A stretch of DNA of 18,933 bases from NCBI GenBank assembly GCA_043750125.1, contig JAYVCD010000452.1, positions 1-18,933 of the forward strand, read 5' to 3'. This stretch comes from Archangiaceae bacterium. Lineage in GTDB: Bacteria > Myxococcota > Myxococcia > Myxococcales > Myxococcaceae. Numbering within the stretch: the stretch's first letter is position 1; each line of letters opens with the position of its first letter. The notes beneath the pieces are model-generated. The model was not told the origin of the DNA. It ran no database searches and saw nothing but the letters and a program-made list of their open reading frames with translations. Position numbers and translations under genes: made by a program. Shown here piece by piece: positions 129 through 16,043 of this stretch.

Positions 129-806
129 ATGCCGGACGCAATTGAAGGTCAGTCGTCGACGATTCGGGTGGAGGTGGACGCAGCCCTGAAGGCGAAATGG
201 GAGGCGAACAAGGAAAAGATTTCCGAAGCGCAGCGCGGGGGCGCCGAGTCCTTCATCGTGCTTTGGAAATCGGTCACAGAGGTCGTCGAATCAACGCCTC
301 CCCTATATCTGGCGGCGGGGTTCGTCTCCGCGACCGCTTTTGCCGAGAAGTTCCTCAAGGTGCCGATGCGCACGGCAAAGCGAAACATGGAGGTCGCGCG
401 CGTCGCATCTCGTGCCGAGGTCGAGCGCTACGGGATCAGTAAGTTGGACTCGGCGGTGAATCTGTTGAGCGTGGACACTCCTTCGTTCGACAAGATTCGG
501 GTCGCGGTGGAACGCAAAGGCAAGCCGAGCAAGGTCAGCATCGAAGAGGCGAACATCGATGAGATCCGACTGGCGGTTCGGAACCTGCGCCCGAAAAAGC
601 CGGGGCCGATCAAGAGCCGCAACCCCGCCGCCGCCTTGCTGAACAAGGCGATGACCGATGGGAAGCTCAAGGGCGTGACGGTGGTACTGGCCAGGTCGGG
701 GATCACCTTCCGCGGGCTGGGGTTGGAAGACCTTCAGTCGCTGGCCGGAATCCTCGCCCGGGTCAAGTTGCCAGGAAGTCGGCCGGTGCTGAGGCGCGTC
801 GCGTAG
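129..806 (+). CDS. Hypothetical protein, 225 aa, basic, possibly DNA-binding (helical N-terminal region, DUF3102-like feel)
   Basis: Natural amino-acid composition, GC-rich third codon positions and a downstream terminator support a real gene. The segment LYLAAGFVSATAFAEKFLKVPMRTAKRNMEVA resembles HTH-like regions of mobile-element-associated proteins. Function is not established. Confidence 0.75.
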   Translation: MPDAIEGQSSTIRVEVDAALKAKWEANKEKISEAQRGGAESFIVLWKSVTEVVESTPPLYLAAGFVSATAFAEKFLKVPMRTAKRNMEVARVASRAEVERYGISKLDSAVNLLSVDTPSFDKIRVAVERKGKPSKVSIEEANIDEIRLAVRNLRPKKPGPIKSRNPAAALLNKAMTDGKLKGVTVVLARSGITFRGLGLEDLQSLAGILARVKLPGSRPVLRRVA

Positions 807-829
807 GTTGATTTCGGCCAGGTGAGCTC

Positions 830-871
830 GCAGGCGCGCCGCAATGGGCAAGGGCGGCGCGCCTGCTTTTT
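830..871 (+). terminator. Rho-independent terminator
   Basis: 13-bp perfect stem GCAGGCGCGCCGC (830-842) / GCGGCGCGCCTGC (854-866), 11-nt loop, then TTTTT (867-871). It starts 24 nt after the stop at 806. Confidence 0.8.
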
Positions 872-1067
872 CCCGGCCTGGCGCAGGAAGAGGCCGGGCA
901 AAAGAAGCACGTGCCGCCGGTGGGTCAAGCAGCAGCTCAAGAGCTGGGACTGAAGGGCGGCCTCACATTCCTGAGACGGGCTTGGGAATGCGAAGCGCAC
1001 CGAACAGAAAGAGGTCGACGTTTCGGTAGGTTCGCGGTGGTGTGTCCCTTGCGGCCCGCCGCGGTGA

Positions 1068-1576
1068 ATGAACGTCCCTCGATGTGCAATTTGGGTTCTC
1101 TTCGGGCTTGGCCTGGGCGGCTGCAAGCTGAGTACCTCAACGACCCTTCGTTTCGTCGCAACGCGCTGGTTGGCTCGCTTCAAAATCCTTCCAACAGCTA
1201 TTCGCAGCAGCGCCTGGGCTCGCATGCGCTGCAGACCCGCGGGTGGGACCTGCTGCCCGAATGGAATCCGCGCTCGGTCCGACTGCGGGCGGATTTTTTG
1301 AAGGGCGATGGCGAGGTCGCACCGTTGTGGGACGGGGTCAAACCGCAGACTCCACAGGCCTGGATTGCACTGGGGAAAGAAGTCTTCTTCGCCTACCCGC
1401 TTCGGGCCGAGCCGCTGGTCGAGTTCGCCGTCGCTCACCCCCAGCTTGCAGAAGCAGTGGGGCTCGAGCGCACTGCCGAGGGCGCGTACGTGGGGCCGGT
1501 GAAGGGCCATGCCTTCGGCACCGATTGGCCACAGGAAGATCGCACCGCGGTCATCGCCTGGATGCGCACGCTCTGA
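1068..1576 (+). pseudogene. Probable degraded lipoprotein gene of a cytochrome c/RoxA-like type (frameshift plus internal deletion)
   Basis: Frame 1068 encodes a signal peptide and lipobox (MNVPRCAIWVLFGLGLGG-C). Protein-like sequence continues in another frame from about 1128 (AEYLNDPSFRRNAL...WDLLPEWNPRS...LGKEVFFAYPLRAE). It ends with GHAFGTDWPQEDRTAVIAWMRTL, the C-terminal motif of RoxA/di-heme cytochrome c-like proteins, yet has no CxxCH. Confidence 0.55.
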
Positions 1577-1672: not shown

Positions 1673-2547
1673 ACCGCGATGTGGCGCAGCTTCATCTGAA
1701 CGTCAGAAGACCAGTGGTTGGCAAACGCGCGCACGCAAGTCGACAGGTAGCGCTCGTAGTTGTTCCACACCGTCTGCCCATCGCTCATCTTCGTCGCGCC
1801 CCACTTCTCTTTGATCTTCTTCTCGTTGAGGCGCAGGCGGCGCAGCCATTCGGCAGTGGTCTTCCCGTAGTCCTCGCGGCGGGTCTTGAGCTCGATGATT
1901 TCCCAGCTCTGTCCGCAGGCGGTGACCAGCTCTTCGAGCCGGGGGTTGAGGCCGCCGGGGAAGATCACGTCGGCGGTGAACTTCAGATCTTCGAGATCCT
2001 TTCGGGTGCGCGGAACGCGGTTGCGCAAGATGGCCTGAAAGCCGAAGCAGGCGCCGGGCTTCACCCAGCTCGCGAGCTTGTTGAAGTACTCGCGGTAGAT
2101 AGGCACCGACAGACCTTCTTGCTGCTGCTTCGGCGAGACGAGGTGGTCGATCATCTCGATCGACACCAGCGCGTCGTACTTCTCGGCCGGCGCGTAATCC
2201 TTGTAGTCGACGCACCAGGTGGTGACGCCCGGCAGCTTCCGGGTGGTGAGCTCGTCATGCTGGGCGCGCGAGAGCGTGATCCCGTGCGAGCGCTTCACCT
2301 TCTTGTCCAGCGCGAGGTACTCGAGGTTCGCGCCCCAGCCGCAGCCGACATCGAGCACCAGCGAATCGGCGGTCACCTCGGCGAAGTCGGCGAGGATCCG
2401 GCTCTTGTTCACCTGCGCCTGCTCGAGCGTGGTGTTCTTTTCGTCGTAGACGGCCGACGTGTAGTGCATGCGCTCGTCGAGCCAGAGGCGAAAAAACTCG
2501 TTCGAGATGTCGTAGCCGACTTCGACTTCTTCACGGGTGGAGGTCAT
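1669..2547 (-). CDS. SAM-dependent lipid methyltransferase, CMAS/Cfa family
   Basis: YDISNEFFRLWLD, SAM motif VLDVGCGWG, GITLSRAQ, IFPGG and DYGKTTAEW are signature motifs of the cyclopropane synthase / mycolic acid methyltransferase family. Confidence 0.92.
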   Translation of the reverse strand: MTSTREEVEVGYDISNEFFRLWLDERMHYTSAVYDEKNTTLEQAQVNKSRILADFAEVTADSLVLDVGCGWGANLEYLALDKKVKRSHGITLSRAQHDELTTRKLPGVTTWCVDYKDYAPAEKYDALVSIEMIDHLVSPKQQQEGLSVPIYREYFNKLASWVKPGACFGFQAILRNRVPRTRKDLEDLKFTADVIFPGGLNPRLEELVTACGQSWEIIELKTRREDYGKTTAEWLRRLRLNEKKIKEKWGATKMSDGQTVWNNYERYLSTCVRAFANHWSSDVQMKLRHIAV

Positions 2548-2584
2548 GGGTTTGCCTTCTGTAAGAGGACTGCGTTGTTTCGAT

Positions 2585-5500
2585 TCAGGCGACGGCTTCC
2601 ATCTCGCGGGTCAGCCGCTTCAGCTCTGCCGAGACGATGTCGGCGGTTTTCTTCAGCTGCTCTTCGCTGTGCAGACTGCTGACGAAGAAACGAAGGCGCG
2701 CGAGGTGCTCTTCGACCGCAGGGTATAAAATCGGCTGCACGTTGATCCCCCGGTCTTTGAGCGCATCGGACAGCTGCAGGCAGAGCACCGAATTGCCGAC
2801 AATCGCCGGCACCACCGCCGAGTCTTTCGACAGCCCGGTATCGATGTCGCGTTCTTTGAGCAGCTTCAAGAACAGCTTGGCGTTGTTCTGCAGCCTCTTC
2901 ACCCGCTCGGGGTGGGCTTCGAGCTGACGAAGGGCCGCCAGCGCCGCCGCCGCATTCGGAGGGCTGATGCCTACCGAGTAGACGAAGCCGGGCGTGGTGT
3001 ACTTGAGGTACTCGACCAGCGCGGTGGTGCCGGCGATGTAGCCGCCGCAGCTGGCGAACGATTTGCTCAACGTCCCCATCCACAGGTCCACGTCGCTGCG
3101 GACAACGTCGTAGTACTCGCCGATGCCGTGGCCGGTCTTGCCGATGACTCCGGCCGAGTGGGCTTCGTCGACGAGCAGCAAGGCCTGGTGCTTCTTCTTC
3201 ACCGCGATGAACTTCGGCAAATCAGGAATGTCGCCGTCCATCGAGTAGGTGCCTTCGATGCAGACCAGCACCCGGCGGTAATGCGGTCGCAGCGAAGTGA
3301 GCGCGCGGTCGAGCGCCTCGAAGTCGTTGTGGGGGAAGGGCCGTCGCTTGGCACCGGACAAGCGGGCGCCTCCGATGATCGAGTCGTGCGCGAGGGCGTC
3401 GTGGAGAATCAAGTCTCCGGGCCCCACGATGTGGCCGATGACGGTGACGTTGGTCGCGTGACCCGAGACGAAGACCAGCGACGACTCGGTGCCGAAGAAG
3501 CGGGCCAGCTCTCTCTCGAGCTCGCCGGTCAGCGGCTTCTCACCCGAGGCCACACGGCTGGCCGAGACCGACGTTCCGTAGGTGTCGATCGCGGCTTTCG
3601 CGGCGGTCGAGACCACCGGGTCCCCCGAGTTGCCGACGTAGTTGTAGGACGAGAAGTTGATCATCGACTTCCCGTTCACCACCGTGGTGTCACCGCAGAT
3701 CGCCTCGTGAACGCTGAAGTACGGGTTCTTCAAGCCGAACGCGGCCGCCATCTCGATTCGCTCTTGAAGCTCGGTGTACTCGGGGAATTTGTCGAAGCGA
3801 TAAGTCGACTCGTCCGCCGCTCCCTCTCGACCCGGCGCCTCGGCCTCGGACGCTGCTGCTTCGGGGGCCTTCTTCGCGGCGGCCGCGGCGACGAACTGGG
3901 GATCGCGCTGCTTGAATTCGGCCTCGACCCCTTCCATCACCGCGAGCAGCTTCCCGCTCGAATCCGTCCACGAGAGGGTGCCGCGCATCAAATCGCCGGT
4001 CGCCGCCTCGAAGACCGCGGTGCACAGCACGGGCGCGGCGCCGAAGGGGTGCAGCTGGGTGAAGCGCTTGAAGCCCAGCGGAAAGCCGGCGCGCTGATGC
4101 TTGACCCACGCCCAATAGCCGGCGAGCTGGAAGCTCGAATCGAGCAACAGCGGGTCCACCGTCCACGCGCTGCGCAGCGGGTCTTTGACCCAGTCCGACG
4201 GACGGCAGCCCTTGACCCAGCCGCTGACGCCGGTCTCGGTGAGGCCTTCGATGCTGACGATTCCGCGCAGCCGCGGGCCGTGGAAGGTGAAGCCCGAGTA
4301 GAACTCTTCGAGCGACATCGGCAGCGAGTCGTACGCGGGAAGCTGCGGCACGGGCGGAAGCTCTTTCGCGTCGACCGCGGCGCGCACCAGACCCCGGTAG
4401 CTGTCGGTGCCGGCCTGCCGCAGCGTCACGCGCTGGCCTTCGGCGCTCTGGGCCACGTCGGCGGAAAGCCAGAGGGTGTCATTGACCAGCACCGGCTTGA
4501 GCAGCTTGAAATCTTCGATGCTGAAGCCTTCGGTTCCCCCTCGCGCGTCGAGCGCAGCGGCGGCGAGATGATCCACTGCGGCGGCCAGGGGCAGCACGCG
4601 CTGGCCGGCCATCTGGTGATCATCGAGATAGACGTGAGTCTTCGGTGAGACCGGGAACTTCGAGACGTGGTGGGCGGACGGCGCGGTGACTTCTCGGCCG
4701 ATCAACACTTCGCCGGTGCCGCGCTCGACCTCGGTGAGGAAGCTGGCCAACCCTTCTTCGTCGGTGAGAAAGGTGACGCCCTGCTCGATCATTTCGCGCT
4801 TTTTGAACCCGGGGATCCGCTGCGCCATCGCGCTGTCTTCCCAGGGCGGAAAGTCGATCGTCACGCACCGTACGGAAGGCCGCGTGCGTTGCGAGAGTGC
4901 GGCGAGCATCGCGTTGGCCGACGCGTAGTCGGTCTGACCGGCGTTGCCGAAGCGTCCAGCCCAGGATCCCACTCCGACGAACAGCTTCAGCGCCGAGGTG
5001 GCGTCGAGCAGCGCGATCGCTCCGCCCACTTTGGGCTCGAGCACGGCGTCGAGTCCGGCGGCGTCTTTCTTCGCCACCAGCGAATCGGCGATCACCCCGG
5101 CCGCATGCACGATGGCGTCGATTTTCCCGAAGGCCGCTTTGACCGCGGCGACGCCGTCGTTCACGCTCTTCGTCGAGCGCGCGTCGAGCACCTGATAGCT
5201 GCACTCGCGCGCCCCGTCGCTCTTCACCGACGCGCACGCTTTGAGCGTCTCGTCGCTTGCCGCCGAACGACCCGCGAGCACGATGGCGCAGTGGTATTTC
5301 GAGCCGAGCGCGCGGGCAAATTTCAGCCCCAGGCCCCTGGCTCCACCGGTGACGAGCACGACCGATTGGGCATCGAGCGCCGCCGCGACGGGGCCGGACG
5401 CCCGAGCTTCCTTCAGCTCGGACGTGACCCGGCCGCCGCTCGAGTAGCCGACCTCGACCCGGCGATCGGCCGACACCAGCTCATCGAACAACGCCTGCGC

Positions 5501-8500
5501 GATCGCTTCGGCGCCCAGCGCGAGCTCAACGTCGATCGCCTTGACCACCGCGTCCGGCCATTCCTGCGCCAGGGCCCGGGTGAAGGCCAGCGCTCCGACC
5601 TGGCCCAGCGCTTCGCGTCCTCCGCCGGCCGACGACAGCCGGCCGCCCAGTGCCGCGACGGTGAGGAACAGCCGGGCCTCGGGGCCGACCTTGTTCGCCA
5701 TCGCCAATACCCGCCGGGTCGCGACGCGGTAATCGTTGTCGCGCGGCGTGAGGTCGGCGAGGTGAATGACGCCTGCGAAGCTTCCTGCGGTGGTCGCATC
5801 GCCAAGCACCGCTTCGATTCCGCGTGCGGTCAATCGGGTGGCGAGCGCCTTGCCGACCCCGTGGGCATCGACGGTGATCAACACCGGACGATCAAATGAG
5901 AGAACCGACTCGCGCAGGGGACGCAGCGGAGCGGCCAGCGCGACCGGCACGTAGCGCGAAATGGGAGCCGTTGACTTGCTGTCCACCGTCAGCTCGGTCG
6001 GCTTGGCGAGCGCGCCGACGATGTGGTTGATGACCGCGGCGATGGTGGTGGTCTTGTTGAACAGCTCTCGCGGCAGACCGCCCAGCTTCGGCCAGGCCTT
6101 CGCCACATCGCCGTCGAGCTCGACCAGCATCAACGAGTCGAAGCCGAGCTCACCGGTGAGCGCCTGTTCCATCTTCAGTGCGGCTGCGGGGAACGCGCTG
6201 ATCCGCGCGACGGACGCGAGGATCTTCGCTTCGACCTGGGGGCGAACGTCTTCGACGACCGGCGGCCGCGGCTCTTTTGGCGCCACCATGTTCGAGAAGT
6301 TCGGCGGCTTGATCGCCACCGGCAGCTTCTGCGCGGCCGCGAGCGAGGCGGCGGCTCCGGGGTTTCCACTGGCGACGGCCTGCAGCGCCGCGGCCTGGGC
6401 CTTGAGGATTTCTCCTTGCTGGGTCAGCAAAGCCATCTGCTCGCGGAAGAGGCTGACGAGGGAATCCATGGGTGCTCCGGTCTTGGTGGCCGAAAAGGAA
6501 GAGGGGCGTGCGGAAGGGGCACTGGGTCGGGCGGGAGCCACGGTGCGTGGCGCTCGCTGAGCCGGGCGTTCGATGCCCCAATAGGTTTGAGTCTCGAGGG
6601 GAGAAGGCGGCAACATCACCAGTCGGGCGTCGCTGCCCTCGAGCAGCGCTGCAGCGTTGAGCGGAACTCCACGGACCCACAGCTGCGCCAGGGTGGTGAG
6701 CAGCTGCGCCCCCCCATCGCCTCCCTCGGCTGAACCCAAAGAGAAGAACGCGCTGTCTTTTCCGGCCGCGCCGCGGGCGAAGGACAGCAGCGTGTTTCCC
6801 GCGCCCACCTGGATGAACAGCTTGCAGCCCTGAGCGACAACGGTCTCGAGCGCCGAGACGAAGTCGACCGGAGCGGTCGCGTGATCCACCCAGATGTCTC
6901 GCGCCTCGTCGACCGAGGTGTACAGGCCCCCTGAGATGCACGAGGCGATCGCCGTTGCCGGGGGCGAGAGCACGAGCCGCGCGACGATGCGGCGCATTCC
7001 GTCGTCGACGCCTTCCATCAGCGGCGAATGAAAAGCGTGCGAGACCTCGAGCTGCGCGGTCTTGAGCCCGTTGGCCTCGAGCTTCTTTTTCGCCGCCGCG
7101 ATCGACGCGGTGTGGCCCGAGAGCACCAGCTGGGTCGGGTGGTTGTGATTGGCCAGCCAGACATTGTTCAGGCCCGCGAGTAGCGGTTCGACCAGCGTGC
7201 GCTCGGCCATCACTGCGAGCATCGCGCCCGGATCTTTGAGGCCGAGCTTGTTCATCAGCTGGCCCCGGCGCGCCACCAACCGCACTGCGTCCTCGGCGGG
7301 CAGCATTCCGGCGACGGAGGACGCGACGAATTCTCCGAGGCTGTGGCCCAGGACCACGGTCGGCTCGACCCCCAATTCCTTGAGCCACTGTCCCAGCGCG
7401 AGGCCGAGCGCGGCCATCGCCGGCTGACAGACTTCGGTGCGGGTCAGCAGCGCCTGCGCTTCGACTTCGTCGTACGGCTCGGCGGGGTACAGCGCGGCGA
7501 GCAGGGAAGCGCCGGCGTCATGTTGCACCGCTCCGTCCAGCGACTTGAGCCGCCGAGCGACCGCGGGGAAGCGCGAGACGACATCGCGCAGCAACCCCAC
7601 CCGCTGGGCGCCCTGGCCGGGAAAGAGGAACGCGACCTGCCGCGCCGAGGCGTCGAGCACGGTGCCGAATGTGCCAGAGTCTTCACCTTTGACGAAGGCC
7701 TCGAGCCGCTCGATGAGTTGGGCGCGACCCTGGGCCACGATCGCCAACCGGACATCGAAGCTCTGCCTCTGGGCGAGGGTGAGCGCCACGTCCGCACACG
7801 AGAGCTGAAGGGTCGCAATCTGCTCGGCCACTTCGGCGGCGTAGGTCCGCAGCAGATCCTCGTTGGCCGCAGAGAAACAGAACAGCTGGGGGTGCTCGAC
7901 TTCGGAAGAGCTGACGGGCGGCGCCTCTTCGAGCAGCACGTGGGCGTTGGTTCCTCCGAACCCGAAGCTCGATACTGCCGCGCGCCGCGGATGCTTTGGG
8001 CTCGCCTTCCAGTCGAGCTCGGACTGCGCGATCTGAAAGGGTGAGCTCTCGAGCTCGAGCGAGGGGTTGAGCTCTTCACAGGAAGGCTGGGGAGGAATCG
8101 TGCGGTGGTGGAGCACGAGCGCGGCCTTGATGAAGCCTGCGACGCCCGCGGCCGACATGGTGTGGCCGATGTTGGCCTTGATGCTCGAGAGGTAGCAGTA
8201 CGGCTCATCGAGCGGGGTTTTGGCGCGGGCCTGAAAGAAGGACTTCAGCGCGCCGACTTCGGTCGCATCGCCGACGGTGGTGGCAGTGCCGTGGGTCTCG
8301 ACGAAGCCGATCGTCTCGACCGGGAAATCGAGGTCGCGGTGCGCGCGGCCCATGGCGGCGATCTGCCCTTCGGCGCGCGGGGTCATCGGGCCATCGCCGC
8401 GCCCGTCGTTGTTGCAGCCGCTGCCCTTGATCACGGCCCAGATGCGATCGCCATCGCGGCGCGCGTCTTCGAGCTTCTTCAGCATCACCATCCCCACGCC

Positions 8501-9301
8501 TTCGCCCATCACGAACCCGTCGGCGCGGGCGTCGAAGGGACGGCAGACGCCGGACGGAGAGATGGCTCCGATGCGGGAGAAGCCGATGAGGTTGTCGGGC
8601 TGCAGGTTCAGGTAAACCCCGCCGGCGAAGGCGACGCTGCACTGTCCCGCGCGCAGGTTGATCACCGCTTCGTGAATCGCGACCAACGCCGAGCTGCAGG
8701 CCGCGTCCATCGACCAGCTGGGGCCGCCGAGATCGAAGGTCTGCGAGATGCTGGCCGCCCCCATGTTCAGCAGCGAGCCGGCGATCGAGAAGGCGCGCAT
8801 CGGGACCACGTCGGCCACCGAGGCCCTCAAGGCTTCGGCTTCAGAGGTGGACAACTTGTCGCCGAACTGTCCGTCGATGGTCTGCTGGGCGCGCACCCGC
8901 GAGATGAGCAGGTCCTTGTGCTCGGAGACCGACGCCCCGACGAAGACGCCGGCGTTGGCGCGGTCGAAGCTCTTCCCGTCGTAGCCCGCGTCCTGAATCG
9001 CCTGCCGCACCGCTTCGATCAACAGCCGATGTTGGGGGTCCATCACCTGTACCCGCCGCGGAGCGAGCCCGTAGTGAAGCGCGGCGAACTCTTTGTAGCC
9101 CTCGACGAAGGCGCCCTTGCGCACGTACGTCTTGTCGGCCGCCCGCAAGTCGGTCGCGTCGAAGAAGCTGGCGTGGTTCCAGCGCTCTTCCGGAATGTCC
9201 TCGAAGGTCACTTCCCCGGTGCGGACGACGCGCCAGAGCGCACTGAGGTCTTTGGCGTGGGGAAACTTGCACGCCATTCCGATGACGGCGATGTCGCTCA
9301 T
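2585..9301 (-). CDS. Type I PKS (KS-AT-ACP-KR-DH) fused to a C-terminal PLP-dependent alpha-oxoamine synthase (serine palmitoyltransferase/AONS family)
   Basis: KS: DAACSS, HGTAT, NIGHT. AT: GHSLG and HAFHS (malonyl type). ACP: LGFDSL. KR: VTGGARGLG, DYASAN. DH: HQMAGQRVLP and DSSFQ. AOS: NFSSYNYVG, DALAHDS, YSMDGD, DEAHS, GTLSKSFA (PLP lysine). Confidence 0.95.
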   Translation of the reverse strand: MSDIAVIGMACKFPHAKDLSALWRVVRTGEVTFEDIPEERWNHASFFDATDLRAADKTYVRKGAFVEGYKEFAALHYGLAPRRVQVMDPQHRLLIEAVRQAIQDAGYDGKSFDRANAGVFVGASVSEHKDLLISRVRAQQTIDGQFGDKLSTSEAEALRASVADVVPMRAFSIAGSLLNMGAASISQTFDLGGPSWSMDAACSSALVAIHEAVINLRAGQCSVAFAGGVYLNLQPDNLIGFSRIGAISPSGVCRPFDARADGFVMGEGVGMVMLKKLEDARRDGDRIWAVIKGSGCNNDGRGDGPMTPRAEGQIAAMGRAHRDLDFPVETIGFVETHGTATTVGDATEVGALKSFFQARAKTPLDEPYCYLSSIKANIGHTMSAAGVAGFIKAALVLHHRTIPPQPSCEELNPSLELESSPFQIAQSELDWKASPKHPRRAAVSSFGFGGTNAHVLLEEAPPVSSSEVEHPQLFCFSAANEDLLRTYAAEVAEQIATLQLSCADVALTLAQRQSFDVRLAIVAQGRAQLIERLEAFVKGEDSGTFGTVLDASARQVAFLFPGQGAQRVGLLRDVVSRFPAVARRLKSLDGAVQHDAGASLLAALYPAEPYDEVEAQALLTRTEVCQPAMAALGLALGQWLKELGVEPTVVLGHSLGEFVASSVAGMLPAEDAVRLVARRGQLMNKLGLKDPGAMLAVMAERTLVEPLLAGLNNVWLANHNHPTQLVLSGHTASIAAAKKKLEANGLKTAQLEVSHAFHSPLMEGVDDGMRRIVARLVLSPPATAIASCISGGLYTSVDEARDIWVDHATAPVDFVSALETVVAQGCKLFIQVGAGNTLLSFARGAAGKDSAFFSLGSAEGGDGGAQLLTTLAQLWVRGVPLNAAALLEGSDARLVMLPPSPLETQTYWGIERPAQRAPRTVAPARPSAPSARPSSFSATKTGAPMDSLVSLFREQMALLTQQGEILKAQAAALQAVASGNPGAAASLAAAQKLPVAIKPPNFSNMVAPKEPRPPVVEDVRPQVEAKILASVARISAFPAAALKMEQALTGELGFDSLMLVELDGDVAKAWPKLGGLPRELFNKTTTIAAVINHIVGALAKPTELTVDSKSTAPISRYVPVALAAPLRPLRESVLSFDRPVLITVDAHGVGKALATRLTARGIEAVLGDATTAGSFAGVIHLADLTPRDNDYRVATRRVLAMANKVGPEARLFLTVAALGGRLSSAGGGREALGQVGALAFTRALAQEWPDAVVKAIDVELALGAEAIAQALFDELVSADRRVEVGYSSGGRVTSELKEARASGPVAAALDAQSVVLVTGGARGLGLKFARALGSKYHCAIVLAGRSAASDETLKACASVKSDGARECSYQVLDARSTKSVNDGVAAVKAAFGKIDAIVHAAGVIADSLVAKKDAAGLDAVLEPKVGGAIALLDATSALKLFVGVGSWAGRFGNAGQTDYASANAMLAALSQRTRPSVRCVTIDFPPWEDSAMAQRIPGFKKREMIEQGVTFLTDEEGLASFLTEVERGTGEVLIGREVTAPSAHHVSKFPVSPKTHVYLDDHQMAGQRVLPLAAAVDHLAAAALDARGGTEGFSIEDFKLLKPVLVNDTLWLSADVAQSAEGQRVTLRQAGTDSYRGLVRAAVDAKELPPVPQLPAYDSLPMSLEEFYSGFTFHGPRLRGIVSIEGLTETGVSGWVKGCRPSDWVKDPLRSAWTVDPLLLDSSFQLAGYWAWVKHQRAGFPLGFKRFTQLHPFGAAPVLCTAVFEAATGDLMRGTLSWTDSSGKLLAVMEGVEAEFKQRDPQFVAAAAAKKAPEAAASEAEAPGREGAADESTYRFDKFPEYTELQERIEMAAAFGLKNPYFSVHEAICGDTTVVNGKSMINFSSYNYVGNSGDPVVSTAAKAAIDTYGTSVSASRVASGEKPLTGELERELARFFGTESSLVFVSGHATNVTVIGHIVGPGDLILHDALAHDSIIGGARLSGAKRRPFPHNDFEALDRALTSLRPHYRRVLVCIEGTYSMDGDIPDLPKFIAVKKKHQALLLVDEAHSAGVIGKTGHGIGEYYDVVRSDVDLWMGTLSKSFASCGGYIAGTTALVEYLKYTTPGFVYSVGISPPNAAAALAALRQLEAHPERVKRLQNNAKLFLKLLKERDIDTGLSKDSAVVPAIVGNSVLCLQLSDALKDRGINVQPILYPAVEEHLARLRFFVSSLHSEEQLKKTADIVSAELKRLTREMEAVA

Positions 9302-10143
9302 GCGTTGAGGATCACGGCGGAAGCCGGGGGCGTCACCGCTGCTTCCGCGACCTTGAGCTTGTCCTTCCAGACGCGGGGCAGGTCGTGGCGCGAGATCTTG
9401 AGCGCCTTGAAGATCGGGCCCCAGACCTCAGAGAGGAACACTCCGCGGTCGATGCCGGCGGTGCGCATCACCTCGACGCGTGACTCGTAGTCGGGGATCA
9501 GCTCGAACGCGGGCATGGTGAAACCGTAGAAGACCGTGGCGATGTCCTTGAGCGTCCCCTCGCGGTCGTCATCGAGAAAGTGTCCGAGGACGATTTCGTA
9601 ATACCGCGCGTGCGCCATTTCGTCTTTGGCGATCAGCTTGTAGATCGACGCCAGCGCGGGCTGGTTCTCGGCCTCGCACAGCGCCTGCTGCTTCTTGTAG
9701 ATGATGAAGGTCGTCATCTCTTGCACCGCGCCGTAGGCGGTCATCTGCCGGCCGGTGTCGAACGGTCGCTTCCATTCCTGCTTCAAGATCCGCTCTTCGT
9801 AATCGAACATCTGATCTTCGGTGCGGTGTCCGCTGCGCACGAGGAACTCGCGCAGCGACAGGGCGTGCTTGCTCTCTTCGTAGCCCCAGTTCACCGCGAA
9901 CCAGCTGCGCGCGAAGTTGTCGCGAAACAGATCGAGGTGCCCTTTGACGTAGTCGGGCAGGTACATCTCGACGCCGCAGAACGTCTCGGTGCACAGCGCC
10001 AGCTTGTCGTTGCGCGGAGCGTTTTTCGCCGCTTCCCAGTCGATGTCGGTGAACGGGTTCCAGCGGCGGGCCCGTTCGGCGTGCTCGAAGAACGTCATGT
10101 ACTCGCGGTGAAACTTTTCGCGCAGGGCTTTCGAGGCGGTCAT
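9298..10143 (-). CDS. Soluble acyl-ACP desaturase (ferritin-like di-iron family)
   Basis: Di-iron motifs WGYEESKH, VQEMTT and KDEMAH match the EExxH / QE / DExxH pattern; FTMP occurs near the C-terminus. The stop overlaps the PKS start (ATGA). Confidence 0.88.
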   Translation of the reverse strand: MTASKALREKFHREYMTFFEHAERARRWNPFTDIDWEAAKNAPRNDKLALCTETFCGVEMYLPDYVKGHLDLFRDNFARSWFAVNWGYEESKHALSLREFLVRSGHRTEDQMFDYEERILKQEWKRPFDTGRQMTAYGAVQEMTTFIIYKKQQALCEAENQPALASIYKLIAKDEMAHARYYEIVLGHFLDDDREGTLKDIATVFYGFTMPAFELIPDYESRVEVMRTAGIDRGVFLSEVWGPIFKALKISRHDLPRVWKDKLKVAEAAVTPPASAVILNA

Positions 10144-10160
10144 GGGGGCGACTCCCGTTT

Positions 10161-10424
10161 TCAGGCGGCGACTTCAGTTCCGGCGGGCACCAGGCGTTTG
10201 ACCAGCGAGGCCAGGTCTCCCAGCGTCTGGACCTTCGCGAGGTCCTCGTCGGGCATCCGGATGTTGAGCTTCTCTTCGAAATAGCTGACCAATTCCATCA
10301 CCGCGACCGAGTCGAGGCCGAGCTTGGAAATCACCGTGTCGCTGGTGAGCTCACCGAGCTTCTTCCCGTTCACTTCGAGGGCCGCCTGCTGAAACATCTG
10401 AAGAACGTTCACCGTCTGCGCCAT
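10161..10424 (-). CDS. Stand-alone acyl carrier protein
   Basis: 87 aa with the phosphopantetheine site LGLDSV and the ACP-like helix pattern ELVSYFEEKLNIRMPDEDL. Confidence 0.95.
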   Translation of the reverse strand: MAQTVNVLQMFQQAALEVNGKKLGELTSDTVISKLGLDSVAVMELVSYFEEKLNIRMPDEDLAKVQTLGDLASLVKRLVPAGTEVAA

Positions 10425-10453
10425 GGGGGTCTGTGTTCCTGTGAATGAAGAAA

Positions 10454-12337
10454 TTAGAAAAACCTGCCGACCAGCGAACGCGCGTAACGACCGGCGAGGC
10501 CGAGCTTGAGGACGGCGTCGGCGGTGGTGCGGATTTCCAGCGCGTGCCGAAGGACTTTTCTCGCCCGGTGCCGGCTGCGGCCGACCAGCGAGAGCGCGAC
10601 GTGCTTGGCGAGCACCGCTTTCTGGGACTTCCCGAGCGAGCGGCTGCCTTCCTTGCCCAGCGTCTTGTCGAGGTACTGCAGCCGGGTCTTGGCGCGCTGC
10701 AGCTTTCCGCTCGAGGTCTTCGGCAGGCTGCCGGGCGCCGCGATCACCACTTCATTCACCGCCAGCTGCAGCAGCTCGCTCATCCGCTGCTTCACCGTTT
10801 CTTTGAGCTTCTCGGGGTCCTGGGTGCGCGACTCGACCGCGACGATCAGCTCTTCGCTGTTGGCGCCGGGAATCGAGAAAGCCACGGTGCTGCCCTTGCG
10901 GACTTCAGGCACTTCGTCGGCAATCCACTCGATGCGCTGCGGTTCCCAATTGCGGCCGTTGATGATGATCAGGTCCTTCTTTCGACCGGTGATGTAGACG
11001 TTTCCGCTGACGAGGTAGCCCAGGTCTCCGGTGCGCAGCCAGCCGCCGCCGAACGTCTTCTCGGTCGCGGCGGGGTCACGGAAGTACCCCTTGGCGATCG
11101 ACGGGCCCTTGACCCACAGCTCGCCGACCCGGCGGTCTTTGAGCCGCTTCCCGTCGTCATCGAACACTGCGACTTCGTGACCCGGGAAGGTCTTGCCGAC
11201 GCTGACGAACTCGACCGCGGTTTGCGATTTGAGCGAATCGACGTGGGCCGGCTCGGCGCGGCGATCGGTCTGAAGGGGATCTTTTTCGACCACGTCGGTC
11301 GACAAATCTTCGGTCAGCGGAATGAAGGAAATCGCCAGCGTCGCTTCGGCCATTCCGTAGCAGGGCAGCAGCGACGACGGTTTGAGGCCGGCTTTCGAGA
11401 AAGTCTCGACGAACGCCTTCATCGTCGCGGGGTTGATCGGCTCGGCTCCGCAGCCGAAGGCTTTCATCGACGAGAGGTCCCAGCGGGCGAGGGCTTCGGG
11501 CTTGGCGCGCTTGGTCGCCAGCGCGTAGGCGAAGTTCGGAGCGAAGCTGATCGTCCCCCGCTTCTTGCTGATCGTATCGAGCCAGATGGTCGCGTTGCGC
11601 ACGAAGGCCATCGTCGGAATGAAGGTGCAGGCGATGCGGTGAAACAGCGGGGCGATGACGAAGCCGATCAGCCCCATGTCGTGGTACAGCGGGAGCCAAC
11701 TGACGCCGTGGTCTACGTCGGTGTCGGTGTTGAGCCCGTCGCGCATGATCGCCCACGCATTGGCGCGAAGCGAGCCGTGGGTGACTTCGACACCTTTGGG
11801 AGCCGAGGTGCTGCCGGACGTGAATTGCAAGAACGCCAGGTCTTCGGCAGTGACGGTCGCGGGCCGCTGATCCGCGTCGGCCGGAGGGTCGGTGCGCAGC
11901 GTCTCGGCGGTGATGACGCCCTGAAGGGATTTCACTTTCGCCGCGCCGCTCCACAGCACCGACTCGAGCTTGGCGTTGGTGGCCAGGTAGGTCGGCTCGG
12001 CCTTGGTCATGATCGAGACCAGCGCCTCGATGTAGGCGTCGAGCTTGCCCAGGGACAGCGGAGGGTAGAGAGGAACCGGTACGATTCCGGCCCACACCGC
12101 TCCGAAAAATGTCGGCACGAAGTCCTCGCCGTCGGGCATCACCATCGCCAGGCGGTCGCCTTTCTTCATTCCCTTGCTGCGCAGCCAGGCGCCCCGTCGC
12201 ATCGCCTCAGTCCGAAGCGCATCAAACGAGTAGTGAACGTCGGAGCCTTCCCGGCCCAAAAACGTGAAGCCCTTCTCAGTGAGACCCTGGTTGGCGTCCA
12301 GCGCTGCGATCAAGGTGGGGAAGTCGAAGATCTCCAT
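10454..12337 (-). CDS. Fatty acyl-AMP ligase (FAAL; acyl-ACP synthetase)
   Basis: LQFTSGSTSAPKGV, SWLPLYHDMGL, PCYGMAEATL followed by the FAAL-type insertion, WLRTGDLG and PKTSSGK. I place the start at Met50 of the track ORF (12337) because the upstream in-frame part is AT-rich and looks non-coding. Confidence 0.92.
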   Translation of the reverse strand: MEIFDFPTLIAALDANQGLTEKGFTFLGREGSDVHYSFDALRTEAMRRGAWLRSKGMKKGDRLAMVMPDGEDFVPTFFGAVWAGIVPVPLYPPLSLGKLDAYIEALVSIMTKAEPTYLATNAKLESVLWSGAAKVKSLQGVITAETLRTDPPADADQRPATVTAEDLAFLQFTSGSTSAPKGVEVTHGSLRANAWAIMRDGLNTDTDVDHGVSWLPLYHDMGLIGFVIAPLFHRIACTFIPTMAFVRNATIWLDTISKKRGTISFAPNFAYALATKRAKPEALARWDLSSMKAFGCGAEPINPATMKAFVETFSKAGLKPSSLLPCYGMAEATLAISFIPLTEDLSTDVVEKDPLQTDRRAEPAHVDSLKSQTAVEFVSVGKTFPGHEVAVFDDDGKRLKDRRVGELWVKGPSIAKGYFRDPAATEKTFGGGWLRTGDLGYLVSGNVYITGRKKDLIIINGRNWEPQRIEWIADEVPEVRKGSTVAFSIPGANSEELIVAVESRTQDPEKLKETVKQRMSELLQLAVNEVVIAAPGSLPKTSSGKLQRAKTRLQYLDKTLGKEGSRSLGKSQKAVLAKHVALSLVGRSRHRARKVLRHALEIRTTADAVLKLGLAGRYARSLVGRFF

Positions 12338-12429
12338 TTCGTGGGAATACGTTGGAAGGGGAAAAGGGGTCAACAGCGGACCTGCATCGCCCGAGGTCGC
12401 CGAAACGGGTGCGAAGCGAGGCACAGGAC

Positions 12430-12457
12430 AAAATAGTAAGTATTGGCAGTATGTTAA
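12430..12457 (-). promoter_or_regulatory. Candidate sigma70-type promoter for the FAAL-PKS operon
   Basis: TTAACA-N16-TATTTT on the minus strand, inside the AT-rich divergent intergenic region 12338-12679. Weak match. Confidence 0.3.
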
Positions 12458-12642
12458 AGTCGAATATCGCGCCTTATGACGCACGCAATACGCAGCACGG
12501 TGAGCCGATTGTTGCTCACAATAGCGAATCGGGTTCTGCCCCGTGCCTTGGGGCGTTTCCGGTTGGCCCGGTGCCCCTTTCGAACCCTGAATTCAACTTA
12601 CTGTATTTGTTCAACTTTAAAGTGCGCATAAAACTGCTCAGT

Positions 12643-12671
12643 TTGACACCCTTGGAGCGCTTCCCTACAAG
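12643..12671 (+). promoter_or_regulatory. sigma70-type promoter, probably giving a leaderless transcript
   Basis: Perfect TTGACA (12643-12648), 17-bp spacer, TACAAG (12666-12671). The ATG at 12680 follows after 8 nt with no Shine-Dalgarno sequence. Confidence 0.65.
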
Positions 12672-12679
12672 GCCGCGCA

Positions 12680-13876
12680 ATGCAAACCGAGCCGACCGGA
12701 GCTTCCGTGATCTCTCCCCCTCCGTCTGACGTGGTGATCAGCCGGGTCGAGACCGCCGAACAGAAGAAGCAGTTCATCCTCTTCCAGTACGAGGTCTACA
12801 AGAACGACCCGCACTTCGTCCCGCCGCTGCTGATGGATCGCGAGATGTTCTTCAACGAGAAGAAGAACCCGTGGTTCGAGTTCGGAAAAACGGATCTGTT
12901 TCTCGCGCGCCGCAACGGGAAGATCGTCGGCCGGGTCGCAGCGATCGAAGACCCCCGCTACAACGATTTTCACCAGACGAAGATCGGCTGGTTCGGAATG
13001 TTCGAATGCATCGATGACGTGGCGGTGGCCCGGGCCCTGCTGCAGACCTGCGAAGTCTGGGTCCAGGCACGCGGGCTGACCCAGATGCTCGGGCCGGCCA
13101 ACTTCTCCAGCAACAGTGAGTGGAGCACGCTGATTGACGGCTTCGACGCCGACGCGGTGCTGATGACCACCTACAACCCGAAGTACTACCCGGCGCTGAT
13201 CGAAGCGTGCGGGTACACCAAGGCGAAGGACCTGTGGGCGTTCTGGCTCGACTTGAAGACCCCTCCGCCCGAGCGGGTGGCGCGCATCGCCGAGAAGGTC
13301 CGCGCCCGGGAAGGAATCGTCATTCGCAAAGCGAACATGAAGGACTGGGACAACGAGGTGCGGAAGATCAAAGAGATCTACAACGCGGCCTGGGAAAAGA
13401 ACTGGGGCTTCGTGCCGATGACCGATCGCGAATTCGATCACCTCGCGAAGGACCTGAAGATGATCCTCATTCCCGAATTGACGCTGCTCGCCGAAGTGAA
13501 AGGGGAGGCGGTGGCCTTCGCGATCACGCTCCCCGACGCGAACCAGGCGATCAAGCTCGCCAACGGGAAGCTGACCACCTTCGGCCTGCCGATTGGCCTG
13601 GCGAAGATGCTGCTGAAGCTCAAGAAGATCAAAACCGGGCGGCTGGCGATCCTGGGAATCAAGACCGGCTTTCGCAAACGCGGCCTCGACTCGGTGCTGA
13701 TGCTCGACACCTTCCTCGCGGCCCAGAAGCTCGGCTGGACCGGGGGCGAAATCTCCTGGACCCTCGAAGACAATTCTCTCGTCAACCGCGCGATCGAGAT
13801 CTTCGGCGCCAAGAAGTACAAAACGTACCGGGTGTACGGCAAGCCGCTGGTCGCGCAGGTCGCGCTCAAAAACTGA
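12680..13876 (+). CDS. GNAT-fold N-acyltransferase, YghO / bacterial ceramide synthase (bCerS)-like, copy 1
   Basis: VGRVAAI, GWFGMFECIDD, GPANFSSN, LIDGFD, YNPKYY, KAKDLWA, IYNAAWEKNWGFVP, FRKRGLD and EISWTLEDN follow the motif series of this family. Confidence 0.85.
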   Translation: MQTEPTGASVISPPPSDVVISRVETAEQKKQFILFQYEVYKNDPHFVPPLLMDREMFFNEKKNPWFEFGKTDLFLARRNGKIVGRVAAIEDPRYNDFHQTKIGWFGMFECIDDVAVARALLQTCEVWVQARGLTQMLGPANFSSNSEWSTLIDGFDADAVLMTTYNPKYYPALIEACGYTKAKDLWAFWLDLKTPPPERVARIAEKVRAREGIVIRKANMKDWDNEVRKIKEIYNAAWEKNWGFVPMTDREFDHLAKDLKMILIPELTLLAEVKGEAVAFAITLPDANQAIKLANGKLTTFGLPIGLAKMLLKLKKIKTGRLAILGIKTGFRKRGLDSVLMLDTFLAAQKLGWTGGEISWTLEDNSLVNRAIEIFGAKKYKTYRVYGKPLVAQVALKN

Positions 13877-15066
13877 TGGCCGTCGCAGCGAAGCGGGGGA
13901 CGGACGCGCCGCCGCGGTATGCGGTGCGGGCCCCGGACGTGACCATCGAAGAAGTGGTCAATGCGCATCAGCGCGACGAGTTTTCGCGCTTTCCCCTCGA
14001 GCTCTACGCGGGCGACACCCGGTTCGTCCCTCCGATCGTGGCCGAGCGGCGCGAGTTCATCGACCCGACGATCAACCCCTTCTTCCAGCACGCCCGGGGA
14101 GCCTTCTTTCTCGCGCGCCGCAACGGGAAGGTCGTCGGTCGAATCGCAGCGGTGAACGATTCCCGGTACAACAATTTCCACGACAGCGACGTGGGCTTCT
14201 TCGGAATGTTCGAGTCGCTCAATGATCCAGGAATCGCCGCGGCGCTGTTCGAGACCGCCGCCCGGTGGATTCGTCTCAGTGGGCCGCAGATGATGATCGG
14301 CCCGCTCAACCTTTCCTTCCATCACGACATCGGCTGCCTGGTCGACGGGTTCGACCGTTCGCCCTCGATGATGATGCCGTACAACCCGCGCTACTACGCG
14401 AAGCTGTTCGAGGTGAACGGCTTCACCAAGTGCAAGGACCTCTGGAGCTACGAGCTGCTCGCCAGTGAGCCGCTGCCCGAGAAGGTCGCCCGCTTCGCCG
14501 AGCGGGTGCGCACCGCGGGCGGAATCACCATTCGTCGCATCGACCTTCGAGACGAAACGAACGAACGGCGGCGAATCAAGAACATCTACGACTCGATGCT
14601 CAAGCCCGGGTGGGGGTTTGCTCCGATTTCCGACGTCGAGTTCGACGCGGCGGTCAGTCGCCTGCGGCCGTTGATCGCGCTGCGGCCCGAGCTGTGCCTG
14701 GTCGCGGAAGCCAATGGAGAAGCGGTCGGCTTCGGGATTACCGTCCCGGACACCAACCTCGCGCAGAAGACCACCGGCGGGTATTTGTCGCGCTTTGGAC
14801 TTCCCGTCGGGCTGGCCAAGATGCTCTGGGCGGCGCGGAAGATCGACCGGCTGCGGGTGCTGATGTTCGGAATCAAGCAGGGCTGGCGACGGCGGGGAAT
14901 CGACGCGCTGCTCGCCGTTGAGACGATGCAGCAGGCGCGGAAGCTGGGTTACGTCGCGGGCGAGTTGGGGTGGGCGGCGGAAGACGACAAGCTGATCAAC
15001 CGCACCATCCAGGCCACCGGCGCCCGGCGGATCAAGACGTACCGGATTTTCGAGCGCGCGATCTGA
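13876..15066 (+). CDS. GNAT-fold N-acyltransferase, YghO / bCerS-like, copy 2 (396 aa)
   Basis: Collinear with copy 1 (VGRIAAV, GFFGMFES, YNPRYY, KCKDLWSY, WGFAP, WRRRGID). The likely start is ATG 13876, overlapping the upstream stop (TGATG), rather than 13207. Confidence 0.85.
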   Translation: MAVAAKRGTDAPPRYAVRAPDVTIEEVVNAHQRDEFSRFPLELYAGDTRFVPPIVAERREFIDPTINPFFQHARGAFFLARRNGKVVGRIAAVNDSRYNNFHDSDVGFFGMFESLNDPGIAAALFETAARWIRLSGPQMMIGPLNLSFHHDIGCLVDGFDRSPSMMMPYNPRYYAKLFEVNGFTKCKDLWSYELLASEPLPEKVARFAERVRTAGGITIRRIDLRDETNERRRIKNIYDSMLKPGWGFAPISDVEFDAAVSRLRPLIALRPELCLVAEANGEAVGFGITVPDTNLAQKTTGGYLSRFGLPVGLAKMLWAARKIDRLRVLMFGIKQGWRRRGIDALLAVETMQQARKLGYVAGELGWAAEDDKLINRTIQATGARRIKTYRIFERAI

Positions 15067-15086: not shown

Positions 15087-16043
15087 GTGAATTCCCCTAC
15101 CGAGCGTCGCATCGCCCTCTTCATCGACTTCGAGAACCTCGTCACCAACACGGGGATCACCGCCTCGAATTTTGATCTGCAGCCCGCGCTCGATCGCCTG
15201 CTCGAAAAGGGAAAGGTCATCTTCCGTCGGGCGTACTGCGACTGGTCGCGCTTCAAGGACGCCAAGAGCCACCTGCACGAGTTCGGCGTCGAGCTGGTCG
15301 ATGTGCCGCCGTCGACGCGCGCCGGAAAGAACAGCGCCGACATGCGGCTGGTGATCGACGCGCTCGAGCTTTGTTACGCCCGCGAGCACATCAACACCTT
15401 CGTCATCGCCTCGGGGGACAGCGACTTCTGCCCCCTGGCCTACAAGCTGCGCGAGAACGACCGGTTCGTGATTGGGCTCGCGGTGAAGGAAGCCACCTCG
15501 CCCTTCTTCGTCAAAGCCTGCGACGAGTTCATCTACTTGCGAGGGCAGGGAAGGGGCGAAGAGCGCAGCAGCGCGCGACCGGCCTCGAGTCGAACCAGCA
15601 GCAGCAGCGGCAGTCGGCCGGATGCCCGGCACGGCCCCGCCTCGTCCTCGGGCGAATCGGCTTCGAAGAAGCCCCGCGCGGTGCCTGAGATCGCCCGCGA
15701 AGTGGTCTCGAGCCTGCTTTCGCGCGCCACTGGCCCCGTCAACCCGTCCTTGATCAAAGAGACCATCGTCCGCAAGCAGCCCGACTTCGACGAGCGGGAC
15801 CACGGCTTCTCGACCTTCTCGCGGATGCTCGAGGCGATGGAGAAAGAAGGGCTGCTCAAACGCCAGCAGCAAGGCCGCCAGTGGTACGTGGTCGCGGTGG
15901 GCGAAGGCCTTGCCGAGCCGAAGGCGGGCAGCGAGGGTGAGCATGATCGCCACCTGCCTGCAGAACCGCACGACGTTCACGAGCACCACGAGCCGGAAGA
16001 AGAGTCGATTCCGGATCCGGAAGACGACGACCTCGCGCTTTAA
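15087..16043 (+). CDS. NYN (LabA/DUF88, PIN-like) domain protein with C-terminal LOTUS/OST-HTH domain
   Basis: IALFIDFEN, RAYCDW, KNSADMRLVIDA, SGDSDF and ACDEFIY; a Ser-rich linker; then PDFDERDHGFSTFSRMLE. Confidence 0.92.
   Translation: MNSPTERRIALFIDFENLVTNTGITASNFDLQPALDRLLEKGKVIFRRAYCDWSRFKDAKSHLHEFGVELVDVPPSTRAGKNSADMRLVIDALELCYAREHINTFVIASGDSDFCPLAYKLRENDRFVIGLAVKEATSPFFVKACDEFIYLRGQGRGEERSSARPASSRTSSSSGSRPDARHGPASSSGESASKKPRAVPEIAREVVSSLLSRATGPVNPSLIKETIVRKQPDFDERDHGFSTFSRMLEAMEKEGLLKRQQQGRQWYVVAVGEGLAEPKAGSEGEHDRHLPAEPHDVHEHHEPEEESIPDPEDDDLAL

Follow-up and report, generated by a model that had tools for sequence, protein, structure and literature searches.

A fused, enoylreductase-less polyketide synthase–α-oxoamine synthase as a candidate entry to ceramide-type lipids in Myxococcota

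How are long-chain bases made in those Myxococcota that carry a presumed ceramide N-acyltransferase but no serine palmitoyltransferase (Spt)? A candidate answer is encoded on contig JAYVCD010000452.1 of an Archangiaceae bacterium (assembly GCA_043750125.1), a complete contig of 18,933 bp that was analysed over its full length and is referred to here as the window. It belongs to a genome of 6.17 Mb in 460 contigs (89.4% complete, 1.96% contaminated), and among public sequences it is closest to metagenome-assembled Myxococcota from soil that carry the labels Myxococcaceae or Archangium. The window encodes a megasynthase in which the polyketide synthase (PKS) domains ketosynthase (KS), acyltransferase (AT), acyl carrier protein (ACP), ketoreductase (KR) and dehydratase (DH) are followed by a terminal α-oxoamine synthase (AOS) domain. 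An earlier note on this DNA had proposed that such a protein, lacking an enoylreductase (ER), could install the 4E double bond of sphingosine without oxygen. We consider it an evenly balanced proposition that the window supplies a ceramide-type lipid pathway with its long-chain-base synthase, an enzyme that would replace the free-standing serine palmitoyltransferase in this lineage. The full version, with L-serine as substrate and a retained 4E double bond, is put forward more tentatively. The same reserve applies to its extension to several Myxococcota families, in which an ER-less PKS-AOS primed by a fatty acyl-AMP ligase (FAAL) would have displaced Spt as the only entry to ceramides and would write the 4E bond without O2 or a desaturase.

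Coding regions were called by codon-position GC together with family scans (Pfam, NCBIfam), and motif conservation was read from an alignment of the 120 best full-length homologues of the synthase (47–100% identity); coordinates and key residues are collected in Table 1. The KS triad, the Ser, Tyr and Asn of the KR and all five residues of the two DH motifs are present in 120 of 120 homologues, as is GFDSLM at residues 1053–1058, which marks an internal ACP that was not called by Pfam here (PF00550 is recorded for some homologues). The AT motifs GHSLGE (652–657) and HAFH (755–758) are kept in 117–119 homologues, the Asp of the LDD-type KR motif in 119, and H1972, D2045, H2048, K2080 and R2204 of the AOS domain in 119–120. 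We take HAFH to denote a malonyl-type AT. Eight residues before its catalytic Tyr, the KR has Phe, not Trp; with the LDD-type Asp and no Trp, it is presumably of the B-type according to the usual rules (Caffrey; Keatinge-Clay). The D-3-hydroxy product of a B-type KR is converted by a DH to a trans-2-enoyl thioester. No ER family and no thioesterase family appeared in the Pfam scan of the synthase, and an ER-type Pfam family is listed in 0/120 homologues. By this conserved domain logic, with KR and DH active and no ER, a (2E)-enoyl thioester would be handed to the AOS domain. The intact KS, AT, KR and DH motifs and the terminal AOS domain described in the earlier note are thus confirmed by Pfam and by the alignment, and its reasoning on AOS as the releasing domain holds. 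The same is true of the proposed priming by a FAAL and a free-standing ACP, both of which are encoded upstream on the same strand, in a FAAL-ACP-PKS/AOS arrangement that is kept across related Myxococcota loci.

The domain order KS-AT-ACP-KR-DH, which the earlier note did not give, is also that of PfaA (602 bits to TIGR02813), and polyunsaturated fatty acid (PUFA) synthases employ a separate ER. This speaks for an alternative in which the module merely lengthens a fatty acid and either an ER acting in trans reduces the 2-enoyl intermediate or the enone is reduced later, so that a saturated base results. One PfaD-family ER is indeed present in the genome, and the published products of the PKS-dependent SgaAB route are saturated (PMC12134224, in the part describing these products). 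Yet the PfaD-type ER is embedded in the 2629-aa frame of a different synthase (contig C325), none of the PKS/AOS loci examined has a conserved ER gene, and a two-carbon module would bring no evident benefit if ordinary fatty acids already supply the chain length. A saturated base is hence regarded as improbable. In the C325 synthase itself (L118, about 2100–13400), the ER shares its frame with KS-AT, and ACP-KR-DH and more KS-like domains come next; by its domain content, this system resembles a PUFA synthase.

The connection to sphingolipids comes from two double-GNAT genes next to the operon. In six canonical Spt loci, drawn from three families of Myxococcota, a double-GNAT gene stands directly 3' of Spt in every case (6/6). 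The first GNAT protein of the window (12680–13876) is 50–59% identical to the Spt-partner GNAT in all six loci, the second (13873–15066) 47–50%, and a GNAT gene adjoins the FAAL gene in 16 of the 17 close PKS/AOS loci with enough flank. In both Spt loci that were scanned there (L098 and L101), the next gene after GNAT encodes an NAD-epimerase-family reductase; L098 has divergent MMPL and PAP2 genes alongside, and L101 a PAP2 gene. For the bacterial pathway, Stankeviciute et al. reportedly found in 2022 that the ceramide synthase bCerS is of the GNAT type and that CerR belongs to the epimerase family. The sections of PMC11324152 and PMC11334938 on this pathway give Spt, an N-acyltransferase and a reductase as the bacterial ceramide set. 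The order Spt-GNAT-reductase in myxobacterial loci thus corresponds to the described gene set, and by analogy the GNAT next to the fusion is probably a bacterial ceramide synthase. CerR-like genes are found inside eight other PKS/AOS loci (L010, L022, L024, L025, L026, L028, L112, L113). For the GNAT proteins themselves, Pfam and NCBIfam gave only weak GNAT matches, the ESM Atlas only generic GNAT clusters, and a PDB sequence search no match at E ≤ 1. The canonical myxobacterial Spt genes, for example L098 9171–10709(-), encode proteins of 512–526 aa in which the AOS fold takes up only residues 45–383, and their C-terminal extension of about 130 aa matches no Pfam family.

The distribution of these genes was surveyed across 401 evenly sampled Myxococcota genomes, with the fusion scored by a contiguous DH+AOS match and canonical Spt at E ≤ 1e-130. 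Tallied from the result rows, the fusion occurs in at least 79 genomes and Spt in about 166. At this threshold the two are found together only in G015, a 72%-complete assembly, while in G197, G213 and G250 the fusion is accompanied by an Spt-GNAT locus of greater divergence. In family f5, the fusion is present in 16/17 genomes, Spt in 0/17 and GNAT in 17/17; the corresponding figures for family f14 are 19/20, 0/20 and 20/20. Within the window's own family, Spt is found in none of 43 genomes of the fusion-bearing genera (g1, g4, g11, g12, g16, g22, g23, g24, g29) and in all 82 genomes of the large-genome genera g3, g5, g10, g15 and g20, which have no fusion. The fusion occurs in 16 of 17 genomes of genus g23, GNAT in 28 of 29 genomes of g22 and g23 combined, and in genus g17 fusion, Spt and GNAT are each found in 0/2 genomes. 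The genome from which the window derives has no Spt above the cut-off, at its 89.4% completeness, and its sole GNAT copies are the two in the window. GNAT accompanies either gene, Spt or fusion. Taken together, the sphingolipid-type link suggested by the earlier note is well supported by the homology of the adjoining GNATs, by the neighbourhood and by the distribution, with fusion and Spt being nearly exclusive and GNAT being kept in Spt-less fusion genomes.

These data also bear on whether the product is a membrane lipid precursor at all. Iteration, which the earlier note had already considered, is possible for a single module that has a competing off-loading domain, and the SgaA PKS is described as iterative in the corresponding part of PMC12134224. 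The ER-less PKS could then produce a conjugated polyene amino-ketone, that is, a specialised metabolite and not a precursor of membrane ceramides. In contrast to patchy secondary-metabolite clusters, however, the fusion is nearly universal in whole families and genera, as the counts for f5, f14 and g23 illustrate. Moreover, the conserved loading pair of FAAL and ACP points to a long fatty starter, and the synthase is linked to the Spt-partner GNAT. A polyene is accordingly rated as even less probable than a saturated base.

Which AOS enzyme does the terminal domain resemble? Among the NCBIfam AOS models, its highest score is with bioF, at 326 bits, which is below the 426-bit cut-off of TIGR00858, and it reaches 281 bits with the Kbl model, below the cut-off of 460. 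An assignment as a BioF-type 8-amino-7-oxononanoate synthase for biotin, which would have undone the earlier proposal, has this top score in its favour; yet the genome's own BioF (447 bits, above cut-off) is encoded between bioB and bioA on contig C436, and the AOS domain is far from it in the tree. A role in biotin synthesis thus appears exceedingly improbable. Identity with Kbl was rejected likewise, with the true Kbl (649 bits) adjoining tdh on contig C116. The top PDB matches are serine palmitoyltransferases (SPTs), namely Arabidopsis LCB2a (217 bits), Sphingobacterium SPT (SmSPT, 211 bits) and human SPTLC2 (207 bits), followed by E. coli KBL (207 bits), the dual BioF/KBL entry 8s1y (205 bits) and dedicated BioF entries at about 152–170 bits. 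The functional residues of SmSPT are named in the relevant passage of PMC10196870. All seven that were compared, His138, Ser185, Asp210, His213, Thr241, Ser243 and Lys244, are conserved in the AOS domain, K2080, H1972, D2045 and H2048 being aligned to Lys244, His138, Asp210 and His213. K2080 would thus be the lysine that binds pyridoxal phosphate (PLP), H1972 the stacking His, and D2045 and H2048 the partners of the pyridine N and of O3', while R2204 would be the Arg for the carboxylate.

In a tree of 40 sequences, the domain falls within a clade of carrier-protein-fused AOS domains (SH-aLRT 100) that includes FAAL-ACP-AOS proteins of Planctomycetota and a KS-AT-ACP-AOS protein of Smaragdicoccus. 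The references in this tree are limited to one BioF, one Kbl and 11 Spt, all of the latter myxobacterial. The carrier-fused, Spt and BioF+Kbl groups join in an effective trifurcation, so that none of them can be named as the nearest clade. The planctomycete fusions, for example L067 7748–11272, are 57–63% identical to the AOS domain. Single proteins of this FAAL-ACP-AOS type occur in many Planctomycetota genomes, including Kuenenia-labelled metagenome-assembled genomes (L030–L080 generally), and the Smaragdicoccus locus (L065 5310–14344), which encodes a FAAL, the KS-AT-ACP-AOS protein and an MMPL-FHA transporter, has a similarly close AOS domain. The flanks of these Planctomycetota and Smaragdicoccus loci contain no GNAT homologue. 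A third AOS-like gene of the window's genome, which lies at the end of contig C256 (L083 8517–9794(+)), groups with the myxobacterial Spt in the tree. In its product, the PLP lysine is replaced by Gly and the O3' histidine by Leu; from these substitutions it looks catalytically dead, reminiscent of the non-catalytic LCB1/SPTLC1 subunit. Upstream, a gene on the opposite strand (7367–8506) matches FA_hydroxylase and a sterol-desaturase/SDR fusion model.

The remaining genes of the operon suggest how the synthase could be supplied and its product modified. The minus-strand order is FAAL, ACP, desaturase-like protein, PKS/AOS and CMAS-type methyltransferase. The FAAL, whose best NCBIfam match is the model "fatty acyl-AMP ligase" PRK09192 (534 bits against a cut-off of 600), probably activates the starter fatty acid. 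The stop codon of the desaturase-like gene overlaps the start of the PKS gene (ATGA). Its product is closest in the PDB to M. tuberculosis DesA2 (E 2.9e-7) and has all six metal ligands (E59, E90xxH93, E142, E175xxH178). This gene is an accessory one, being present in only L002, L013 and L020 among close loci and in L110, L115 and L116 among distant ones. The methyltransferase gene lies 3' of the synthase in 24 close loci, and its top PDB matches are all lipid-olefin methyltransferases (UmaA, MmaA1, cyclopropane fatty acid synthases). Eight distant PKS/AOS loci were examined within the 20 kb fetched; three of them contain a desaturase, three a CMAS gene and two a CerR-like reductase. In distant families, the CMAS gene is located between FAAL and ACP (L113 8753–9592; L115 7396–8241) and not 3' of the synthase, so the gene set is kept while its order is shuffled.

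Table 1. Coordinates of the synthase domains and of further features in the window.
Feature	Position	Strand	Basis and remarks
CMAS-family S-adenosylmethionine methyltransferase, 292 aa	1669–2547	-	Pfam CMAS E 1.2e-48; 37 bp 3' of synthase
KS-AT-ACP-KR-DH-AOS megasynthase, 2238 aa	2585–9301	-	single open reading frame; Pfam/NCBIfam; 120 full-length homologues
Terminal AOS domain, Pfam Aminotran_1_2 residues 1879–2221, whole about 1840–2238; PLP Lys K2080	2639–3667	-	Pfam, alignment
DH domain, residues 1533–1793; H1562xxxG1566xxxxP1571, D1721xxxQ1725	3923–4705	-	Pfam, alignment
KR catalytic subdomain, residues 1314–1489; S1446, Y1459, N1463, D1406	4835–5362	-	Pfam, alignment
Internal ACP, residues about 1035–1115; S1056 in GFDSLM	5957–6199	-	motif conservation
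AT domain, residues 558–839; GHSLGE, HAFH	6785–7630	-	Pfam, alignment
KS domain and linker, residues 2–497; C202, H337, H380	7811–9298	-	Pfam, alignment
Soluble di-iron acyl-ACP-desaturase-like protein, 281 aa	9298–10143	-	Pfam FA_desaturase_2 E 1.3e-14
Free-standing ACP, 87 aa, LGLDSV serine	10161–10424	-	Pfam PP-binding E 1e-11
FAAL, 676 aa	10454–12484	-	Pfam AMP-binding E 9e-63
Double-GNAT N-acyltransferase-like gene, 398 aa	12680–13876	+	weak GNAT matches; divergent from operon
Second double-GNAT paralogue, 397 aa	13873–15066	+	46% identical to first; start overlaps stop of first gene
LEA_2-domain protein	17821–18651	-	Pfam; near other contig end

On this basis, the following pathway can be envisaged, in which the amino acid, the single extension round, the retention of the double bond and each chemical step are inferred. 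The FAAL would adenylate a fatty acid and load it onto the small ACP; here, a double bond may first be introduced into the acyl-ACP by the di-iron desaturase. The KS would then accept the chain for a single extension with malonate on the internal ACP, and the B-type KR and the DH would turn the resulting 3-keto group into a (2E)-enoyl thioester, with no ER to act afterwards. In a decarboxylative Claisen condensation, the PLP domain would join this thioester to an amino acid, for which L-serine is the most likely candidate, releasing a 2-amino-3-keto-4-ene base. N-acylation of the long-chain base by the double-GNAT enzymes and reduction at C3 by a reductase encoded elsewhere could follow, and the CMAS-type methyltransferase would modify an olefin of the chain. 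As the CMAS gene is kept even in loci without the desaturase, its olefin substrate could be either the bond made by the DH, once C3 has been reduced, or one that the starter already carries.

Several points weigh against this reading. With each of the three Spt equivalog models, the AOS domain scores below the cut-off (287 against 640 bits for NF047600, 264 against 500 for NF047599 and 217 against 670 for NF047603), and its carrier-fused clade stands apart from the 11 myxobacterial Spt as well as from BioF and Kbl. Membership in canonical Spt was rejected on both grounds. An AOS phylogeny, as recommended in the earlier note, does not group the domain with BioF or Kbl, but places it in a clade of its own and not among Spt. 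In addition, the margin of SPT over KBL in the PDB scores is small, and AOS enzymes in general share the conserved active-site residues, which means that the sequence alone leaves the amino acid undecided. Concerning the distribution, the four genomes with both fusion and Spt indicate that replacement is not always the case, family f29 has the fusion in 2/4 genomes and GNAT in 0/4, and related genomes are not independent of each other, so that the exclusivity may reflect few evolutionary events. None of the eight distant loci (0/8) has a GNAT gene within the 20 kb fetched, and the assignment of the neighbouring GNAT as ceramide synthase draws on gene neighbourhood and on the reported nature of bCerS. 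The window contains no CerR-like gene; the best CerR match of its genome, on contig C213, is 32% identical, and no close one was found. The literature examined describes no AOS enzyme that acts on a 2-enoyl thioester. Finally, the anoxic route of the earlier note stands only in part: formation of the bond would in itself not require O2, but the operon encodes the O2-dependent desaturase-like protein with its six ligands, so that "without oxygen" is only partly apt, and there is no indication of an anaerobic life in these soil Myxococcota. What can better be defended is that no DEGS-type desaturase would be needed.

Part of this evidence would also fit an AOS domain that condenses alanine or glycine to a 1-deoxy- or 1-desoxymethyl-type unsaturated base, from which a 1-deoxyceramide could be formed. 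The placement of the domain apart from the Spt clade, its failure to reach any Spt cut-off, the top score with the bioF model and the near parity of KBL and SPT among solved structures are all in line with this alternative, as are the 1-deoxyceramides reported in the part of PMC11334938 on the Black Sea sphingolipid survey. Furthermore, Asn52 of SmSPT, which contacts the hydroxyl group of serine via a water molecule according to the passage of PMC10196870 on this residue, is replaced by Tyr in the AOS domain, inside an S-Y-N-Y motif kept in 120/120 homologues; it is the single position that differs among the SmSPT residues named. The same SYNY motif is, however, present in the serine-using Arabidopsis LCB2a, and the separate AOS of the PKS route already described shows a strong preference for serine (PMC12134224). 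The complementarity with Spt and the retained GNAT partner likewise suggest the same lipid class. We hence deem alanine or glycine unlikely, though less so than a saturated base. At residues 1949–1951 of the synthase, after the Gly-His aligned to SmSPT Phe114, the family occurs in two forms, ATN in 88–89 and GVF in 29–31 of the 120 homologues, and these may represent subfamilies with different substrates.

How does the proposed route relate to known systems? RedL, PigH and SxtA are AOS-terminated assembly lines that release carrier-tethered acyl groups. The synthase resembles them, and also the proteins with adenylation, carrier protein and AOS domains (A-CP-AOS), in that a carrier-tethered acyl group would be offloaded by a fused AOS domain. 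In fumonisin and sphingofungin biosynthesis, the AOS enzymes Fum8 and SphA join a polyketide chain to an amino acid; these are separate enzymes that act together with highly reducing iterative PKSs, and the products are toxins. The same kind of coupling is proposed here, and SphA is among the PDB matches of the AOS domain. In contrast to Fum8 and SphA, however, a single fused polypeptide would serve a membrane lipid. In eukaryotes, a DEGS-type Δ4 desaturase carries out the O2-dependent desaturation of dihydroceramide. Fungi have Δ4, Δ8, C9-methyl bases (9-methyl-4,8-sphingadienine), and their sphingolipid C9-methyltransferase belongs to the CMAS family. If the reading holds, the outcome would be similar to that of DEGS and the fungal C9-methyltransferase, that is, a 4E base that is possibly further unsaturated and methyl-branched. 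Unlike with DEGS, the double bond would be introduced during chain assembly by KR and DH. The desaturase and CMAS genes alongside the synthase recall, by analogy, the fungal 9-methyl-4,8-sphingadienine set.

The closest published precedent is PfSgaAB of P. fluorescens MYb115 (Peters et al. 2025), in which a type I PKS feeds an AOS with SPT activity. As described in the available part of this work (PMC12134224), an iterative PKS and a separate AOS with demonstrated serine preference form saturated C24–C28 sphinganines, a KDSR-like short-chain dehydrogenase/reductase is proposed for the reduction, and homologous two-gene clusters are widespread. The main text of PMC12134224 contains none of the words fused, fusion, dehydratase, enoyl and myxo. 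The present locus would share with SgaAB a non-canonical route to sphingolipids, with an AOS that receives its acyl chain from a PKS. Compared by description only, it differs in the single polypeptide, the lack of an ER, the FAAL/ACP priming, the CMAS methyltransferase and the Spt-partner GNATs.

In Caulobacter, the set consists of AasR (an acyl-ACP synthetase), AcpR (a special ACP), Spt, CerS (an N-acyltransferase) and CerR (a dehydrogenase), as listed in the relevant part of PMC11324152. The canonical pathway thus proceeds via AasR/AcpR/Spt and then bCerS and CerR (PMC11324152, PMC11334938 and PMC9386255, in the sections outlining it). Functional counterparts of four of the five (FAAL, ACP, AOS and GNAT) are encoded in the window. 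Unlike in the canonical pathway, a KS-AT-ACP-KR-DH module is interposed between ACP and AOS, the AOS belongs to another clade and the CerR-like gene is missing from the window. A survey from 2013 (PMC3870968) gives the layouts A-CP-AOS, CP-AOS, A-CP-KS-AT-AOS, CP-CP-AOS and KR-CP-AOS in its table passage, with A-CP-AOS proteins of Blastopirellula and Microscilla; the layout KS-AT-ACP-KR-DH-AOS does not appear in that passage.

The literature search found neither a KS-AT-ACP-KR-DH-AOS fusion nor a PKS-derived Δ4 bond in bacteria; supplementary lists, for example of 6101 SgaAB-like clusters, which may include such fusions, and most subscription journals were outside this search. Part of the novelty of the locus is lost, as PKS-derived sphingolipids as such have already been published (PMC12134224). 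The locus would represent a fused, ER-less variant of that route. In the current picture, bacterial ceramides arise through Spt, bCerS and CerR, with one published exception in which a separate PKS and AOS give saturated bases. Should a fused ER-less synthase feed the same N-acyltransferase, surveys based on Spt homology would miss entire Myxococcota families. Bacteria would then own an assembly-line placement of the allylic double bond that defines sphingosine, in contrast to the O2-dependent desaturase of eukaryotes, and thus a convergent route to sphingosine-like bases without O2 or a desaturase. The enzyme would also be a compact tool for the preparation of unsaturated or branched sphingoid bases, and the widespread FAAL-ACP-AOS fusions of Planctomycetota would gain a testable function.

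Downstream of the methyltransferase gene, the frame 129–806(+) and the overlapping candidates 734–1510(-) or 911–1576(+) matched no Pfam or NCBIfam family, and the codon-position GC leaves the strand of the latter region ambiguous. Directly 3' of the second GNAT gene, 15087–16043(+) encodes an NYN ribonuclease domain joined to an OST-HTH/LOTUS domain.

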